Below are positions 4,384 through 43,787 of a stretch of 46,333 bases of DNA, in pieces. The stretch spans positions 1 to 46,333 of the forward strand of contig OZ246411.1 of assembly GCA_965231055.1 (NCBI GenBank), in the 5' to 3' direction. The translations under genes and the position numbers were made by a program. Every line of letters starts with the position of its first letter. Position 1 is the stretch's first letter. Source of the DNA: an uncultured Candidatus Saccharibacteria bacterium (lineage in GTDB: Bacteria > Patescibacteriota > CALEFQ01 > G965231055). The notes under the pieces are model-generated. The model was not told the DNA's origin and made no database searches. It saw only the letters and a list, made by a program, of their open reading frames with translations.

Positions 4384-4777
4384 GGGGATGACAGGCATCG
4401 ATAGTTGTGGAGCGATTGGTATTCGTCATTAAGAGCTATAAGTCACTCTTGTAAAAAACTGACTTATAATCATAAGTGCAAAATCACTTGTAAGCAAAGT
4501 CAAGGCTGCTTTTAGCATGCCGGTCTTTGCACCTGTTGTTGCCTAAAAACCAACAACCATCGCCCCTGCTTGGCTAGAAGCGGGATCGGCGGTGTCATTA
4601 CCTAGCCTCTATCTCGAGCATTTCTTCCGGCTCTTGATGAAACTTTTAGGAAGATTGAAATTTGCATGTTTAGTTCCCTTTTAGTGCAAGTTTTGAAAAA
4701 ACAAAGGGTTCTAGATGACGTAAAAGTACCACATCAAACCCTTCTAGACGGGGGTTCAATTCCCCCCATCTCCACCA
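4384..4777 (+). ncRNA. ssrA: tmRNA (SsrA), one-piece, with CCA encoded
   Basis: The 5' GGGGATG pairs with the 3' CATCTCC-ACCA acceptor stem, including the G3:U wobble. The T-arm is GGGGG-TTCAATT-CCCCC. The candidate tag ORF runs from GCA at 4478 to TAA at 4544-4546 and encodes AKSLVSKVKAAFSMPVFAPVVA. The stop codon sits in the loop of the hairpin GTTGTTG-cctaaaaac-CAACAAC. The gene is adjacent to smpB. Confidence 0.9.
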
Positions 4778-37039: not shown

Positions 37040-40000
37040 TTAAATAAGATCATCTAGCGCGGATGTGGTTTGCCATTTTTTATCCAATCCTCTATTTTTC
37101 TTTCTTGAGAATGCATAGATTAGAGCGGGTATGACAAACAGTGTTCCAAGTGATGAAAATATTAATCCTGAAATCAAAGCAGTTCCGAGCCCAGTCCAGA
37201 AAGGATCATATATCGCCAAGGGTATAATACCGACAATCGTAGTAAGCGTAGTTGAAAGAATTGGTTTTAATCTACTCCTACCAGTTTCGGAAAGAGATTG
37301 TGCCAACGAAAATTCTGGATTGAGCTTTCGTATTTTGTTGAAAGAATCTATATAGACGATTGCATTGTTCACCACAATTCCCACAAGTGCAATTACTCCG
37401 AGTCCTGACACCATATCTAGTGTGCTACCAACAGCGAATAGCGAAGGGAAAACTCCAATAAGTCCAAATGGAATCGTAAGCATGATGACAAATGGCTGAC
37501 CATAGCTATTGAACTGATAAACCAAAACTAGATATACCAATATCAAGGCGATAGTAAATACCACTTGAAGATTACTCGAAGATTCCATAACGGAAGCATA
37601 TTCTCCACCGTATTTTACATCTTTCAATTCCAGACCAAATTCATTTAGCTTGTCTTCGCTGAGATAATTTTTTATTTCAGTTTCTAGAGCTGGTCCGTCT
37701 CCATCCTTATCCATTTTAATACTAATAGCAGAGATTCTTTCCTTTCCCAATCTGGAAATAGAATTGAGTTTTTCAACTTCTTTTACCGCAGCTACACTTC
37801 CAATGTTGGCAGAAGATACGCCAGAAGAACTTGATAAAGAAACATTTTTCAAATCATCTAGATCTTCCCTGGCTTCTTGGTTGTATTTGACTACCAGTTT
37901 ATCTGAAACACCGTCATCTCTGACAACTACTTTTCCAGCTTCGGATTCTGAGAAAACTGAATTAATAGACATGGAGCCGAAAAGCACATTGCTCTGCAAT
38001 TGGGCAAGCTTAGTGCTATCAAAATCCACCGAAACTGCAGAAAGCATCAGATCTTTTGGTCCATTTGAAATTCTTTCTATACCATCTTTATCCTTCACGA
38101 AGTTTTCAATATCATCTACGAGTTTGGCTGTTTTTTCGGTGTCGGAAGAAGCAAATTCAACCACTACATCAAACTCACTTGAAGGAGGTCCATAAGACTG
38201 AGGACTCACTGCTATTACTCTTTCGTCAATTCTAAATTTTTCCAGTTCATCATCGAGCATGTCAGAGATATCTTGCGCCGTAAGATCCGAATCTCTGTCT
38301 TTTGGTTCTTCAATAAACACCATGAAGCTTCCTTCCCAGAAGAAGAAACTTTCGAAATGAGGAATCGCTACAATTTTTTCTCCTATTTCATTATAAAGCT
38401 CTTTCTTTTCTGACAAAGGAGTTCCTGTAGGAAATTTCACAGACACATTGAGCTGCTCCGCATCGCTCGTTGGAAATTGAGAAAATGGAAGCTTTGGAAG
38501 AAAATAACCAAAGCTCACAACGAGCAGCACAACAGGAATCACGATAGTCAAGACCAGATTTTTCTTTTTTGAAAATACTTTCCTGATTGCTGAATAATAT
38601 TTATCAACCAATTTATCAATTCCTTTCTGAGCATAAAAAGCGAATACCGGAACAAAAAGTATTTTTTCTATCTTTTTGAACTTTTTCTCTTTTCGCTCAC
38701 CGCTACCCAAGATCCACTGACCGAAAAGTGGAGTAATACTTATCGCCAAGAAATAGGAGGCAACAAGCATAATAATAAGAATAATTGGAATATACTTAAA
38801 GAATTCTCCCATAATTCCTCCCATCATCGTGTAAGGAATCAATGCAATAATAGTAGTGACAGTTGCCGATAATATCGCTGGTGCGTAATCCTTTACGGAC
38901 TTAAGCGCAGCCGTTTTCTTATCCATTCCCCTTTTGAGATTATCAAGCATTCCAGATGAAATCACTATGGCATTGTCTACAAGCATACCAAGAGAAAGTA
39001 TCATCGCAAAAAGAGTAAGAATATTTAGAGTGTATCCAATCAAAGGCATCACGAACCAAGTTATAAGAAACGAGATAGGTAAAATTATTGAAACTAGTAT
39101 TCCAGCTCTCAAACTGACGAAGAACAATAGCACAACCAAAATAATTACAAGTCCAACTAGCCCATTGTCACTCAAATCTTTTATCAAGCTTCTAACATAT
39201 GGCGAGGTATCGTAAACCAAATTGAAATCTATATCTTCGGTGATAACTTTTTTATCATAGATTTTTTCTACAGCCTCCTTAACCGAATCAGAAACTCTCA
39301 AAACATCTCCATCGCCTTTTTTAGTAACTAAGATATATAGAGATTCTTTGGTAACTGCATCTCCATTTTCGTCTATAAATCCTGCCAAGGTAAAACCCTC
39401 TTCCGATGGAGCTCTTTTTACCTCTGCAAAATCTCCAAGCTTCATTGGCCCAAAAGAAATATTCTTTATATCTTCTATGCTACCAATCTCGCTTTCTATA
39501 ACTATAGCCTTTTCTTTTCCATCTTCACTTGTCACAAATCCTCCAGGTAAACTAGAAGTGACTCCTTTCAAAACAGAAACCACGGCATCTTTTGATAGTC
39601 CTAGTGAATTTAATTTGGCATAATCCAAAATTACCTGAATCTCCATTTCCGCAGAAGGCACAACATCAACTGATTTTATTTCTGAAGAAGTAGTTTCGAG
39701 ATAACTCACAATAGCCGGAGTTTTTTCCAAAAGCTCTGTTTGTGAAAAATTATCGCTAGTCACAGCATAAGCCAAAGTTGGCCCAGTAATATCTATCTGG
39801 GTAACCGCTACATCCACATCGTCTGGCAATACCACTTTTGATGTTTGATCTTGGACCTCTGATACTTTTTTATCTAGATCCTTGAAATCACTAAGCTCTA
39901 TAAATATACTTCCAAAATTATTTGAAGCAGACGATCTAAGTGTTTTTATCCCCTCTACTTCTGAAATTCTATTTTCAAGAGGAATAATAACTTCTCTTTC

Positions 40001-40243
40001 TATATCTTCGGCATTAGCACCGGGATAAACCGCAGTAGCTATCAGCATGTTAGCAGGAATATCTGGAAAATCTTGTTTAGGAATATCTCTCACTCCCATA
40101 ATTCCAGCAACTATAACCGCTATCAAAAGCAATATAGTTATTTTGTATTTATCAATAAAAAACTTTGCCCAGTTTGAAAATCCGCTTGGTTTGAATGTTT
40201 TTTGAGATTGCATATTGTTGTTTTGTTTATGAATAAATGCCAC
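37040..40243 (-). CDS. RND-superfamily efflux permease (AcrB/AcrD/AcrF family)
   Basis: A 1067-aa ORF with the 12-TM two-fold repeat architecture, two large extracytoplasmic loops and typical TM4/TM10 regions. An alternative start is Met11 (40213). Confidence 0.85.
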   Translation of the reverse strand: MAFIHKQNNNMQSQKTFKPSGFSNWAKFFIDKYKITILLLIAVIVAGIMGVRDIPKQDFPDIPANMLIATAVYPGANAEDIEREVIIPLENRISEVEGIKTLRSSASNNFGSIFIELSDFKDLDKKVSEVQDQTSKVVLPDDVDVAVTQIDITGPTLAYAVTSDNFSQTELLEKTPAIVSYLETTSSEIKSVDVVPSAEMEIQVILDYAKLNSLGLSKDAVVSVLKGVTSSLPGGFVTSEDGKEKAIVIESEIGSIEDIKNISFGPMKLGDFAEVKRAPSEEGFTLAGFIDENGDAVTKESLYILVTKKGDGDVLRVSDSVKEAVEKIYDKKVITEDIDFNLVYDTSPYVRSLIKDLSDNGLVGLVIILVVLLFFVSLRAGILVSIILPISFLITWFVMPLIGYTLNILTLFAMILSLGMLVDNAIVISSGMLDNLKRGMDKKTAALKSVKDYAPAILSATVTTIIALIPYTMMGGIMGEFFKYIPIILIIMLVASYFLAISITPLFGQWILGSGERKEKKFKKIEKILFVPVFAFYAQKGIDKLVDKYYSAIRKVFSKKKNLVLTIVIPVVLLVVSFGYFLPKLPFSQFPTSDAEQLNVSVKFPTGTPLSEKKELYNEIGEKIVAIPHFESFFFWEGSFMVFIEEPKDRDSDLTAQDISDMLDDELEKFRIDERVIAVSPQSYGPPSSEFDVVVEFASSDTEKTAKLVDDIENFVKDKDGIERISNGPKDLMLSAVSVDFDSTKLAQLQSNVLFGSMSINSVFSESEAGKVVVRDDGVSDKLVVKYNQEAREDLDDLKNVSLSSSSGVSSANIGSVAAVKEVEKLNSISRLGKERISAISIKMDKDGDGPALETEIKNYLSEDKLNEFGLELKDVKYGGEYASVMESSSNLQVVFTIALILVYLVLVYQFNSYGQPFVIMLTIPFGLIGVFPSLFAVGSTLDMVSGLGVIALVGIVVNNAIVYIDSFNKIRKLNPEFSLAQSLSETGRSRLKPILSTTLTTIVGIIPLAIYDPFWTGLGTALISGLIFSSLGTLFVIPALIYAFSRKKNRGLDKKWQTTSALDDLI

Positions 40244-40350
40244 GATATTTTAGCAGAAACAAATGAAATAAACAAACATCATAAGTATCTATTCACAAAA
40301 CAAATCTAGACAAAAAAAACAACCAGCAACTTCAGTTTTTAAAAGAACCT

Positions 40351-40824
40351 CTAAGAAACTGCTTGAAAAGCCATAACTCCAAAGGATACGAGTAATGAAA
40401 CCGCAATTCCTGAAATGACAACTCCAAGTGCTATTGCCAAGACCGACTTCCAAAAAGGCATACCCAAAACATGAGATGCTATGATCCCACTCCATGCACC
40501 AGTAAGAGGAAATGGAATAGCTACAAAAATCATGAGAGCCAAAAACTTCCAGTTAAATTTAGTGAAGTGCTCGCTGTGTTTGTTTTGAAATCTACTGTAT
40601 AGCCAAGTCATGAACCTATTAAAAAGATACCATTTGCGCATAAGAAGATCTGAAAACTTTTTCAATACAAATAGCACGGGAATAACTGGAAGCAAGTTTC
40701 CTATCAACCCCAAGAAATAAGCTTTTTCAATAGGAAAGCCAAAACCCACACCGAGAGGAATCGCTCCTCTTATTTCTGAAATAGGCAGCAAGCCCGTCAA
40801 TATTGTAAGTAATTCCTGTTGCAT
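40351..40824 (-). CDS. Small multidrug-export-like membrane protein (COG2426 type)
   Basis: A 157-aa ORF. The N-terminus (LLPISEIRGAIPLGV..G......F.G.IGN.LPV) is typical of this family. Confidence 0.6.
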   Translation of the reverse strand: MQQELLTILTGLLPISEIRGAIPLGVGFGFPIEKAYFLGLIGNLLPVIPVLFVLKKFSDLLMRKWYLFNRFMTWLYSRFQNKHSEHFTKFNWKFLALMIFVAIPFPLTGAWSGIIASHVLGMPFWKSVLAIALGVVISGIAVSLLVSFGVMAFQAVS

Positions 40825-41007: not shown

Positions 41008-42180
41008 TTATTTCTTCAAATATCTTTTCAGAATCTTTGCCTTGTCTATTCTTTCCCACGTGAAATCTTTATCCTTTCTACCAAAATGTCCGTATGCGGA
41101 AGTTTTTACATATATTGGTCTTCTGAGTTTTAGCATTTTTTCTATAATCCCGTGAGGAGTAAGATCAAAATGCGTCTCTATTATCTTGGCTATTTTGTGA
41201 TCGGCTATTTTTCCAGTTCCAAAAGAATCCACAGATATAGATACGGGCTTTGCCACACCTATCGCATAAGCTACCTGCACTTCACACTTTTCTGCAATAC
41301 CCGAAGCGACTATGTTTTTCGCCACATATCTAGCAGCGTATGCTGCCGATCTGTCCACCTTTGTAGGATCTTTTCCTGAAAAGGCTCCACCACCGTGTCT
41401 ACCCATTCCACCATAAGTATCTACTATAATTTTTCTACCAGTAAGCCCCGCATCGCCCTGAGGTCCTCCAACTACAAAACGGCCAGTGGGATTTATGTGA
41501 TACTTGGTATTTGAATCAAGCCACTTACCACAAACTGGTTTTATAACTTTTTCCGTAATCTCTTTTTTTATTTTGTTATAACTAATTTCGGGATCATGCT
41601 GTGCCGAAACCACTACAGTATCCACGCGAACGGGTTTTCCTTTTTCATTGTATTCTACCGTAACTTGAGATTTGCCATCTGGACGAAGCCATTTGATTTC
41701 TCCATTCTTACGAACTTCGGCTAGACGCTTTGTGATTCTGTGTGCCAGAGCTATCAGCAAAGGCATATACTCAGGAGTTTCATTGGTCGCATATCCAAAC
41801 ATCATACCCTGATCTCCTGCACCTTGTTCTTTGTGTAAACCCTTGAGCGCATCAACGCCCTGCGCTATGTCCTGGCTTTGTTTATCAAGTGCCACGCTCA
41901 CACCACAATGCTCACCATCTATTCCGTATTCTGCATTATCATATCCCACATCCATTAATTGACGCCTTACCACTTTTGAAATATCCACATGCGCACTTGA
42001 GGTTATTTCCCCAAATACAAATACTTGCCCAGTAGTTACCGCTGTTTCGCACGCGACGCGCGAATACGGATCTTGCGTGAGCATAGCATCAAGCACCGCA
42101 TCAGATATACGGTCAGCCAACTTGTCAGGGTGACCTTCTGTCACCGATTCTGACGTAAACAGAGTGTTTACTTTTTCCAT
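41008..42180 (-). CDS. metK: S-adenosylmethionine synthetase
   Basis: Motifs [19 protein letters not shown] and GGGAFSGKD, with full-length collinearity. The start is taken at Met19 of the listed ORF ([12 protein letters not shown]..), which has an AAGAGG SD upstream. Confidence 0.95.
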
Positions 42181-42202
42181 TTGTTTTTTCAGCCTCTTTT
42201 TC

Positions 42203-42259
42203 GCCAAAAATAAAACTGGGTACAACACAACCAAGCAAAAGCTAGGTTAATTACCCAGT
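42203..42259 (-). terminator. Leader terminator (attenuator) upstream of metK
   Basis: The minus strand reads ACTGGGTA...TACCCAGT, extended by AACCTAGC-tttt-GCTTGGTT and followed by TTTTATTTTT. It lies 23 nt before the metK start region. Confidence 0.55.
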
Positions 42260-42274
42260 CAACTAGGAAAAAGA

Positions 42275-42357
42275 ATTCTAACGAGGCAACCTTAGGATAC
42301 CTTCATGCCTACTAGCTAAACGCTAGTTGGCACTGATCGGTGCCCGAAGATAAGAAC
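42275..42357 (-). promoter_or_regulatory. Candidate ligand-sensing RNA element (four-way junction) in the metK leader
   Basis: The minus-strand RNA has P1 GUUCU/AGAAU enclosing three hairpins: GGCAC-cgauca-GUGCC, ACUAGC-guuua-GCUAGU and AGGCA-17 nt-UGCCU. A terminator follows. Confidence 0.35.
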
Positions 42358-42451
42358 CATTACAATCCTTTTCTTGACTAAAGAAGACTGGATTATTGAA
42401 TTATCTAATTCAATTGTAGTTTGATCCCAAAATTTGTCCAGTATTTTGTGC

Positions 42452-42486
42452 ACAGTAAAAAAATACAGTATATAAATACTGTATTT
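42452..42486 (-). terminator. Terminator after the 42513..43787 gene
   Basis: AAATACAGTA-tataaa-TACTGTATTT, followed by T5 on the minus strand. Confidence 0.7.
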
Positions 42487-42512
42487 AGAATAGATTAATA
42501 CAACTCTTGATT

Positions 42513-43787
42513 TTAATTATTATTTTTTGGTGCCGGTTTATTGTCAGCAGATTCCCCCACAACAAATCCTGTACTCCAACAAACCTGTAAATTGAATCCG
42601 CCAGTCGGACCATCTATTCCCAAAATTTCGCCAGCAAAAAATAAGTTATCTATGATTTTTGATTTCATAGTTTTGTCATCTATTTCAGAAAGCAACACTC
42701 CTCCACTTGTAACCATGGCTTCATCAAAGCCTTTTACCCCCGCAATAGGTAGCTCAAGTCTTTTAATGCTATTTACAAAACTAAGTCTCTCTTTTTTTGT
42801 AACATTGCTTGCGATAATATTTGAATCAAAACCAGAAATTTTGGCAAACTCGACAATGAGTTTTTTAGTAAGCATGCCTGCTAAAATATTCTGAAAAGAT
42901 CTACTAGGAGCTTTGACAATTTTTTCTCTGATTTCTTGATCAAGTTTCATCTCGGTTATGTTTGGCAAAAAATCAATTTTGATATTGGCCTTATCATTTG
43001 CAATTATTTTACTCACGACTCCACTGATATTTAATATTGCGGGACCTGAAAATCCGAAATGAGTAAACAAAATATCGCCTCGTTCAGTAGCTTTCTTTTT
43101 CCCATTTTGCAATACAAAAATTTCTACATCGGCCATGCTCACTCCAGCAAGCTCCCTCACCCACTGCTCATTTACAATAATAGGAACAAGTGCGGGATAT
43201 CTATTTTTTACTTTATGACCCAGTGAATTTATCAAATCAAATCCACTTCCATTTGAACCCGTCTTTGGATATGAAGCTCCCCCTGTACAAAATACGTATG
43301 AGCTCGCAAAAATATCTCCCTCGCTAGTTTTTATTTTGTTTATGCGATTCTTAGTTTTTTCTATCGCTAGCACTTCACAGTCGCACATGACACTAACTTT
43401 GTTTTTGACTATGTATTCATCCAAAGAAGCTAAAACCTCTTTAGCTTTGTCGCTTTTAGGAAACACTTTGTTTCCCTCCAGTTTTGTCTCTACGCCAAGC
43501 GAATTGAAAAAAGCCACAGTTTCATCAGGACCAAAAGTAGAAAATGCGTGCCACAGAAATCTTCCTTTTTCTTTATATTTATTAACTAGCTCTCTTGTGG
43601 TAAATCCAGAATTGGTGATATTGCACCTCCCATTTCCCGTAAGTAGAAGTTTCTTTCCGAAGCTACTATTTTTTTCTACCAAAACCACGCTAGCACCTCT
43701 CTCGGCCAATTTTCCCGAAGCTATCAAGCCAGCGGGGCCTCCTCCAATTACTGCAAAATCAAATTTTGTTTTTTGATTGGCTTTCAT
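42513..43787 (-). CDS. FAD-dependent flavoprotein of the HI0933/YhiN/BaiN family
   Basis: A 424-aa ORF with FDFAVIGGGPAGLIA....ERG..V.L.EK......KLLLTGNGRCNITN and C-terminal FFAGEILGIDGPTGGFNLQ. Confidence 0.8.
   Translation of the reverse strand: MKANQKTKFDFAVIGGGPAGLIASGKLAERGASVVLVEKNSSFGKKLLLTGNGRCNITNSGFTTRELVNKYKEKGRFLWHAFSTFGPDETVAFFNSLGVETKLEGNKVFPKSDKAKEVLASLDEYIVKNKVSVMCDCEVLAIEKTKNRINKIKTSEGDIFASSYVFCTGGASYPKTGSNGSGFDLINSLGHKVKNRYPALVPIIVNEQWVRELAGVSMADVEIFVLQNGKKKATERGDILFTHFGFSGPAILNISGVVSKIIANDKANIKIDFLPNITEMKLDQEIREKIVKAPSRSFQNILAGMLTKKLIVEFAKISGFDSNIIASNVTKKERLSFVNSIKRLELPIAGVKGFDEAMVTSGGVLLSEIDDKTMKSKIIDNLFFAGEILGIDGPTGGFNLQVCWSTGFVVGESADNKPAPKNNN

Follow-up and report, generated by a model that had tools for sequence, protein, structure and literature searches.

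metK is the classic riboswitch-controlled gene, and each new class of RNA found there has shown a different recognition of SAM or of one of its relatives. In the general design of SAM-I, an antiterminator competes with helix P1 of the aptamer, and in several SAM classes uracil-lined pockets hold the sulfonium group. To our knowledge, the metK-only riboswitches known so far all sense SAM, or SAM and SAH. The pbuE adenine and yybP-ykoY Mn2+ riboswitches are transcriptional riboswitches of the ON type, in which the basal aptamer helix shares a strand with the terminator, and the PyrR-, TRAP- and LicT-type systems are typical examples of protein-dependent attenuators. According to one account, SAM-III and SAM-VI are three-stem aptamers with a three-way junction that hide the Shine-Dalgarno (SD) sequence and thereby control translation; in SAM-VI the SD lies in the three-way junction itself, and a strand of the 5' leader, named P0, competes with the closing helix of the sensor (PMC6914780). 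Gene regulation in the CPR, or Patescibacteria, is very little known, and no riboswitch or structured RNA linked to metK in these bacteria appears in the titles and abstracts of the searchable literature.

The window, i.e., the whole stretch of DNA analysed here (46,333 bases), is the start of the closed 843,892-bp genome G000, the relatives of which have genomes of 0.5-2 Mb. The controlled gene, metK, encodes a methionine adenosyltransferase on the minus strand (41008-42180; TIGR01034, 587.7 bits, E 8.9e-177). It is preceded by a real leader of about 200 nt with a terminator (minus strand, about 42406-42205), which contains a conserved and structured domain. This leader begins upstream of the segment 42203-42357 in which the earlier note had placed it, and those boundaries left out its 5' third, namely the lower P1, the pyrimidine linker and the antiterminator strand 42393-42386. 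The segment 42203-42357 on its own (minus strand) has a minimum free energy (MFE) of -51.8 kcal/mol (z = -4.78), and none of 200 shuffles was as good.

The gene upstream of the leader, coding for a flavoprotein of the aminoacetone-oxidase family (42513-43787), ends with an AU-rich hairpin and U run of its own at about 42486-42457, as read from the sequence. Between the end of this gene (42513) and metK, the minus strand presents a single promoter-like site (42413-42440), made of a -35 TGGACA, a 16-nt spacer and a -10 TACAAT with 10 of 12 consensus matches, and transcription is predicted to start near 42406. Comparable promoter-like sites can be read 10-20 nt 5' of the CCAGUC motif, described below, in the two related genomes G001 and G002. 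Since just 25 nt separate the U-tract of the terminator from the ATG of metK in G000, there is no space for a promoter of metK's own, so that read-through of the terminator is the only route to its expression.

A BLAST search of the leader against 61 relatives returned real matches in G001 and G002 only, with identities of 26-27 nt; those in G014 and G052 were short chance matches. G001 and G002 are mutually congeneric, belong to the same order as G000 and to a different family, and carry the same element directly before a metK whose product is 75% and 73% identical, respectively, to MetK of G000. The three genomes share a 5' block, AAAAGGRUUKUAAUGGUUCUUAUCUU, a 3' block, AAGGUUGCYUCRUUARAAUUCUUUU, and, as a third part, the terminator stem GACUGGGU...ACCCAGU with its U's; no relationship exists across them in the stretch that separates the blocks (49-78 nt) or in the loops of the terminator. 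The element is thus kept in orthologous leaders, the very point by which the earlier note had proposed to judge it. A covariance model, R1, scores 98.8, 124.5 and 112.6 bits in G000, G001 and G002, with one copy per genome. Among the six species genomes of the class, three carry the motif, which are exactly the three with metK as judged by a protein query and the family HMM, and the three genomes without motif and without metK are 91%, 78% and 99% complete. The flanking genes differ: G000 has the flavoprotein upstream and a small exporter and AcrB downstream, G001 has a FG-GAP protein downstream, and G002 has ATP synthase genes downstream.

In the phylum, metK is a frequent gene, present in 148 of 401 genomes. 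Over 151 genomes of the phylum, 145 of them outside the class, R1 gave seven further weak matches (E 0.1-0.86), none in a locus with a MetK match. Similarly, it gave two matches close to the end of one locus (E 0.95 and 3.3) in the 27 best metK loci of the phylum, and two (E 0.3 and 1.3), neither upstream of metK, in 80 other metK loci on genome contigs. When both conserved blocks were searched with up to two mismatches in 107 metK upstream regions, none had both and nine had one. Metagenome contigs were scanned with one pattern, restricted to leaders with a gap of 48-78 and an unchanged core, and yielded 57 stretches, none of which was confirmed by R1 (the best, L026, reached 16.7 bits in coding-looking sequence); one pattern run over viral contigs yielded three stretches, none confirmed. 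In the rest of the G000 genome, blastn-short of the leader and a fuzzy search of both blocks found chance-level matches only, with no mimicry of rRNA or other sequences. The distribution of the leader is accordingly very narrow, i.e., one small class of Patescibacteria.

By folding, the sensor is a single rod composed of a 16-bp P1, an internal loop GUUCUU/UGCYU, a 5-bp P1a and a variable tip, all on the minus strand. P1 pairs GAAAAGGAUUGUAAUG (42358-42373) with CGUUAGAAUUCUUUUU (42268-42283), as given by the alignment and by the MFE and centroid structures, where the pairing is the same in the three leaders. It starts at 42373, outside the start given by the earlier note, and counts 16 bp in G000 and G001 and 15 bp in G002. 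The 5' side of the internal loop, GUUCUU (42352-42357), is invariant in the three genomes and in a metagenomic variant presented below; its 3' side is UGCCU in G000 (42284-42288; consensus UGCYU). P1a joins the two invariant strands AUCUU (42347-42351) and AAGGU (42289-42293), and its five pairs form in all three sequences without any of them varying. The distal region (42294-42346) is a hairpin in all three genomes, and neither its sequence nor its length (53 nt in G000, 49 nt in G001, 78 nt in G002) is kept between families. The internal loop can be drawn as a near-helix (G.U, U.Y, U.C, C-G, U.U), no K-turn-like GA motif was seen on reading it, and the conserved core has no multi-helix junction. 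The 16-bp P1 is predicted by folding to be stable without any ligand.

The rod is both the MFE and the centroid structure in G000, G001 and G002 (z = -5.40, -5.36 and -6.05; none of 200 shuffles as good). In the three-sequence alignment, 97.1% of the cells are paired (95.8% in P1), compared to 46-66% when the partners are slid, and 18 of the 23 modelled pairs never vary. Two pairs changed on both sides, a level of covariation that was reached in 112 of 500 column shuffles of these three sequences, two of which are congeneric. Among individual positions, one P1 pair is U.G in G000, U-A in G001 and G002 and C-G in the variant, the G.G mismatch of G000 is a U-A pair in G001 and G002, and compensatory changes between G001 and G002, e.g., U-A to C-G and A-U to U-A, can be read in the distal stems. 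The predicted rod is thus well supported by energy and conservation, and weakly by covariation.

The earlier note had instead folded this region into a compact four-way junction, an aptamer in its proposal. The complementary segments that it listed are all present at their places on the minus strand: GUUCU 42357-42353 with AGAAU 42279-42275, GGCAC...GUGCC 42344-42329, ACUAGC...GCUAGU 42327-42311, AGGCA 42310-42306 with UGCCU 42288-42284, and, for the terminator, ACUGGGUA...UACCCAGU followed by UUUUAUUUUU (42215-42206). The junction itself is not the favoured fold, and energies and homologues both speak against it. Over the same 83 nt it reaches -21.8 kcal/mol, compared to an MFE of -28.3 kcal/mol, and in the 112-nt domain -22.5 versus -42.8 kcal/mol, i.e., 20 kcal/mol worse than the rod, the ensemble pair probability of its P1 being 0.0. 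In addition, this P1 is broken in G001 and G002 (AGAAU to AAAAU), where two of the three hairpins have no counterpart.

In the metagenome runs X6 and X8, a contig matches the entire leader at about 95% identity (record 9 spans 42120-42462, with 13 substitutions and 3 indels). In the sensor (42373-42268), all three substitutions at paired positions keep the pair, each of them one-sided: U42359>C turns U.G into C-G and C42283>U turns G-C into G.U in P1, and C42330>U turns C-G into U.G in the distal hairpin. The three others lie in loops or at the Y of UGCYU, the latter changed by C42285>U to the same alternative as in G001 and G002; G42338>A falls in an internal loop of the distal hairpin, and the tip loop is rearranged at 42315-42319. 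The variant is unchanged across 42360-42418 and in GACUGGGU, and its promoter region differs at 42419 and 42426 only, both hexamers being the same. Its terminator differs at 42252, 42249, 42244, 42242 and 42222/42221, with some changes that improve pairs and one that breaks a pair.

Downstream of the sensor, a hairpin followed by a U-tract is found in all three leaders and is, by sequence and folding, an intrinsic terminator. In G000 it occupies 42214-42260 (minus strand), with a 5' strand GACUGGGU (42260-42253), a variable inner branch (42249-42228) and the U-tract UUUUAUUUUU (42206-42215); U runs lie directly 3' of the stem in G001 and G002 too. The stem GACUGGGU/ACCCAGU is kept in the three genomes and the loops differ completely, a pattern which fits a strand with two partners and a third pairing partner for the stem. 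Such a partner is offered by the 5' strand AUCCAGUC (42386-42393, minus strand). Its core CCAGUC, located 13 nt upstream of P1, stands out as identical in the three genomes amid 5' sequence that has diverged, and is complementary to the GACUGG at the start of the 5' strand of the terminator. In the predicted folds of nascent RNA, the resulting helix P0, AUCCAGUC with GACUGGGU, encloses the sensor hairpin and excludes the terminator, the 5' strand of which doubles as the 3' strand of P0.

P0 is part of the MFE structure of all three leaders when the transcript is cut after the 5' strand of the terminator, and in the cut transcripts of G001 and G002 it is prolonged by a second helix, giving a three-way junction with an extra hairpin. 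When P0 is forced in the full leader, the cost is 1.7, 2.0 and 0.4 kcal/mol in G000, G001 and G002, respectively, so that the terminator state wins by a small margin and the two states are almost equal in energy. When the 5' segment was shuffled 2000 times, a duplex as good as P0 arose in only 12, 32 and 28 cases in the three leaders. The mutually exclusive terminator and P0 pairings are thus predicted to be present. In folds of the nascent RNA, the linker between P0 and P1 (42374-42385, minus strand), which holds a pyrimidine tract (UUCUUU...), can pair with the lower 5' strand of P1, a small hairpin with AAGAA/AAAAG being seen in G000 and G001 and, at one of two lengths, in G002.

The 5' segment has another potential partner in the 20 nt before the start codon (42189-42208, minus strand), which include an SD-like GAGG (42196-42193) and appear complementary to 42391-42373. 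This duplex is predicted at -14.7, -17.1 and -23.2 kcal/mol in the three leaders and was equalled by 28, 21 and 33 of 2000 shuffles, such matches being made easier by the purine and pyrimidine tracts. When the start region is included in the fold, the MFE structures of the G000 and G002 leaders contain this long-range helix. As a lead, a 5' strand that is not engaged in P0 may cover the ribosome-binding site. A pseudoknot that would capture the 5' strand through AACCA and the internal-loop UGGUU, suggested by the nascent folds of G001 and G002, was rejected as too weak (five of five pairs in G001 and G002, four of five in G000, three of five in the variant), and a triple helix of the pyrimidine linker with P1 was ruled out by reasoning on strand polarity.

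The best reading of this leader, which we regard as evenly poised, is an undescribed cis-acting leader of metK that acts by transcription attenuation through a riboswitch-type sensor, most likely for a metabolite of the SAM cycle. The promoter near 42440-42413 would yield an RNA with the rod-shaped sensor hairpin and then the intrinsic terminator. The invariant, pyrimidine-rich internal loop would be the putative effector site, and binding of the effector would bias a near-balanced choice between P0, with read-through and a free start region, and the terminator, with a stop and a free 5' strand. The effector would most likely be a small molecule of the SAM cycle, in which case the leader would represent a new riboswitch class. 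The earlier note had seen an aptamer followed by a terminator, the classic layout of an attenuating riboswitch. What stands is a conserved structured leader, then an intrinsic terminator, directly before metK. The layout is not the classic OFF design of P1 versus antiterminator; the antiterminator here extends the sensor helix basally, as in ON switches.

Because P0 prolongs the sensor helix at its base, a stabilised sensor should favour read-through (ON), which points to SAH or methionine and not to SAM. In a SAM-OFF variant, the 5' strand would have to be captured once the ligand is bound, and no well-supported pairing able to do so was found in the leaders. An ON switch for metK sensing methionine or SAH, as a new class native to the CPR, is in itself unlikely; a further SAM-OFF class is more probable than this, if still doubtful, and within the riboswitch reading the chances of a SAM-OFF and of an ON response to SAH or methionine are roughly even. 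G000 has no ahcY and no luxS and only a weak match to an MTA/SAH-nucleosidase-like gene, so that its SAM/SAH balance may rest largely on MetK, a consideration that does not decide the ligand.

Some observations on the architecture weigh against a riboswitch. The 16-bp P1 puts about one and a half helical turns between the loop and P0, and the allosteric path is not evident. The conserved core has no multi-helix junction, and the comparative set consists of three more or less independent sequences and one variant at 95%. The ON-type layout conflicts with the SAM-OFF precedent of metK-only riboswitches. Finally, helices conserved in sequence suit recognition by a protein at least as well as they suit a metabolite pocket.

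The strongest of the other readings is an attenuator that depends on a protein or another trans-factor, where the rod and its loop would be bound by an RNA-binding protein, possibly one sensing SAM or methionine, that shifts the balance between P0 and terminator. We consider it a serious contender with a minority share of the probability. P1 and P1a are kept in sequence (the invariant pairs cited above hold between families) and the distal hairpin and terminator loops have fully diverged; P1 is too long to need a ligand, in a rod without junction; and with terminator and antiterminator within 2 kcal/mol of each other, any bound factor could tip the balance. Against this reading, the genes on either side vary, so that no regulator accompanies the leader, and no candidate protein was found; the internal loop, as read, shows no K-turn-like GA motif; and metK leaders elsewhere, this phylum included, are direct RNA sensors.

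A leader that senses nothing, be it a constitutive one (with fixed read-through, or with a role in stability or in processing of the RNase III type) or a small RNA gene of its own placed before metK, is improbable. Such a view draws on the self-contained unit of about 200 nt with its own promoter and terminator, on the long, near-perfect helices, and on G001, where about 220 nt separate the terminator from the start of metK and leave room for another metK promoter. It has to face the dependence of metK on read-through imposed by the 25 nt of G000, the presence of the leader in all three class genomes with metK and in none of the three without it despite different neighbours, and a conserved antiterminator strand balanced against the terminator, which is hard to explain without regulation.

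Whether the leader could be a member of a described family was addressed with all families of Rfam 15, at gathering thresholds over the window and with E up to 10 on 42150-42520 (371 nt) and on the 461-nt leader of G001. The window gave the tmRNA at 4384-4777 only and nothing at the metK leader at gathering thresholds, and neither leader matched any family with E up to 10. This includes SAM-II, SAM-IV, SAM-I/IV, SAM-V and the T-box (RF00230) on both leaders and SAM-III, or SMK box (RF01767), on 42150-42520. Over the whole genome, SAM-I (RF00162, gathering 44.4 bits), SAM-VI (RF02885, gathering 57.5) and SAH (RF01057) each had no match with E up to 10, and SAM-SAH (RF01727) had 15 weak matches of at most 13.9 bits, none of them at the metK leader. 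The earlier note had recognized neither the signatures of SAM-I nor any obvious likeness to SAM-II, SAM-III or SAM-VI, and both statements hold in these scans, as no Rfam family, SAM/SAH or other, matches the leader. A T-box was also rejected on another ground: the core has a single AUG, which reads ACG in the variant.

The same search performs well on positive controls. Among the closest MetK relatives outside the class (Bacillota, 60-66% identical), 12 of 20 loci, the 20 run through Rfam out of 80 kept, carry SAM-I (11 loci, 59.8-83.5 bits) or SAM-III (one locus, L079, 71.8 bits) directly before metK, and locus L089 carries a T-box at 115.7 bits. Two of 20 metK loci of Patescibacteria carry SAM-I, barely above the threshold of 44.4 bits (46.3 and 44.6 bits). 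SAM-I and SAM-III before metK in relatives, together with SAM-I in this phylum, indicate that metK is commonly controlled by riboswitches, the phylum included.

A highly diverged member of a known SAM or SAH class (SAM-I/IV, SAM-II/V, SAM-III, SAM-VI, SAM-SAH or SAH) would fit the position before metK, the 5' block with its UCUUAUC-like string, which resembles the P1 of the S-box (a resemblance only), and the existence of these barely detectable SAM-I elements in the phylum. It is very unlikely given the blank scans of the G000 and G001 leaders and of the genome, where RF01727 alone gave hits, weak and elsewhere, given the recovery of SAM-I, SAM-III and T-box in the control loci, and given a core in which two strands form an internal loop, unlike SAM-I with its four-way junction and unlike SAM-III and SAM-VI with their three-way junction (PMC6914780). 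Attenuation by a leader peptide, in which translation of a 14-codon frame (MVLIF..., part of the ORF 42316-42453) opened by the AUG 42360-42358 behind AAGGA would control the terminator, has next to no probability. In its favour, the SD-like AAGGA/AAGGG, the AUG and the first five codons are kept in G000, G001 and G002. Against it, nothing is common after residue 5, the lengths differ, the AUG is ACG in the variant contigs (42359), the frame of G000 does not reach the 3' block, which is just as conserved, AUG and SD-like string are buried in P1, and the peptide has no internal Met codon through which methionine could be sensed. The leader is a candidate for an undescribed RNA family within a known kind, that of cis-acting attenuators and riboswitches.

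Should the leader bind a metabolite, it would add a new fold to the set of metK riboswitches and show how the methyl cycle is balanced in a genome of less than 1 Mb without SAH hydrolase or LuxS. If it proved to be an ON switch, metK leaders could no longer be expected to act as feedback-OFF devices, and this one would count as either the first methionine-responsive riboswitch in nature or a second SAH class unrelated to the known one. If it is bound by a protein, it would point to an unknown RNA-binding regulator. The leader is short, self-contained and directly testable in vitro.

Compared to known systems, the metK leader described here is closest in its distribution to SAM-III (RF01767) and SAM-VI (RF02885), which are likewise small, found almost only before metK and each restricted to one narrow lineage, and it shares with SAM-VI the involvement of a strand of the 5' leader (P0 in both). 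It differs from these two by its core, an internal loop in a rod, and by its output, an intrinsic terminator, and neither model scores on it. Similarly, it resembles SAM-I (S-box, RF00162) as a metK leader that terminates transcription, but has no four-way junction and no match to that model, and its antiterminator extends P1. The SAH riboswitch (RF01057), without match in G000, would be a functional analogue if the leader is an ON switch in the SAM cycle. In its switching layout, the leader has the same topology as the pbuE and yybP-ykoY riboswitches, the 3' strand of the helix closing the sensor being the 5' strand of the terminator; it has no kinship to them in sequence or structure, a 16-bp helix separates its conserved loop from its switching helix, and its response to a ligand is putative.

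Immediately 3' of the flavoprotein gene that lies upstream of the metK leader, an AU-rich hairpin followed by a U run (42457-42486, minus strand) is likely the terminator of that gene, and was overlooked by the consensus scan because it contains fewer than three G-C pairs. This predicted terminator likely shields the leader from upstream transcription. Downstream of metK, the minus-strand interval 37040-40824 holds genes for an AcrB/RND transporter (PF00873, 481 bits) and for a small protein of a multidrug-export family (PF06695); in neither of the same-order genomes with a homologous leader, G001 and G002, does metK have these neighbours.

Within P1, the 16-bp helix of the rod-shaped sensor hairpin, an AUG preceded by AAGGA opens a frame of 14 codons starting MVLIF (42316-42360, minus strand). 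This frame is probably no gene, since ACG replaces its start codon in the variant contigs of metagenome runs X6 and X8, whose leader is about 95% identical. In G001, a GC-rich stretch of about 220 nt, absent from G002 and from the genome under study, separates the leader terminator from the metK start (locus L004, about 1670-1890). It opens with a perfect 19-nt palindrome, TTCACCATATTATGGTGAA (1689-1707), and may represent an inserted element or an operator.

The MetK proteins of the class, including that of the window (41008-42180), match those of Bacillota (Lachnospiraceae and others) at 60-66% and the best MetK of other Patescibacteria at up to 66%, i.e., with about the same closeness (80 loci outside the class, L076-L155, and the 27 best of the phylum, L156-L182). 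Moreover, metK is absent from three of the six class genomes and from 253 of the 401 phylum genomes searched, a patchy occurrence that is compatible with loss and transfer. Neither ahcY nor luxS was found in the whole genome harboring the window, and its sole MTA/SAH-nucleosidase-like match is weak (contig C1, 126324-126923, minus strand; 37.4 bits versus a cut-off of 73.8). The window also carries a tmRNA gene (4384-4777, plus strand; RF00023, 104.4 bits).

Elsewhere in the Patescibacteria, diverged SAM-I riboswitches directly precede metK in two genomes, G146 and G007 (loci L164, 2604-2740, minus strand, and L170, 854-968, plus strand). With scores of 46.3 and 44.6 bits against the Rfam model, whose gathering score is 44.4 bits, the SAM-I riboswitches of this phylum lie at the edge of that model.
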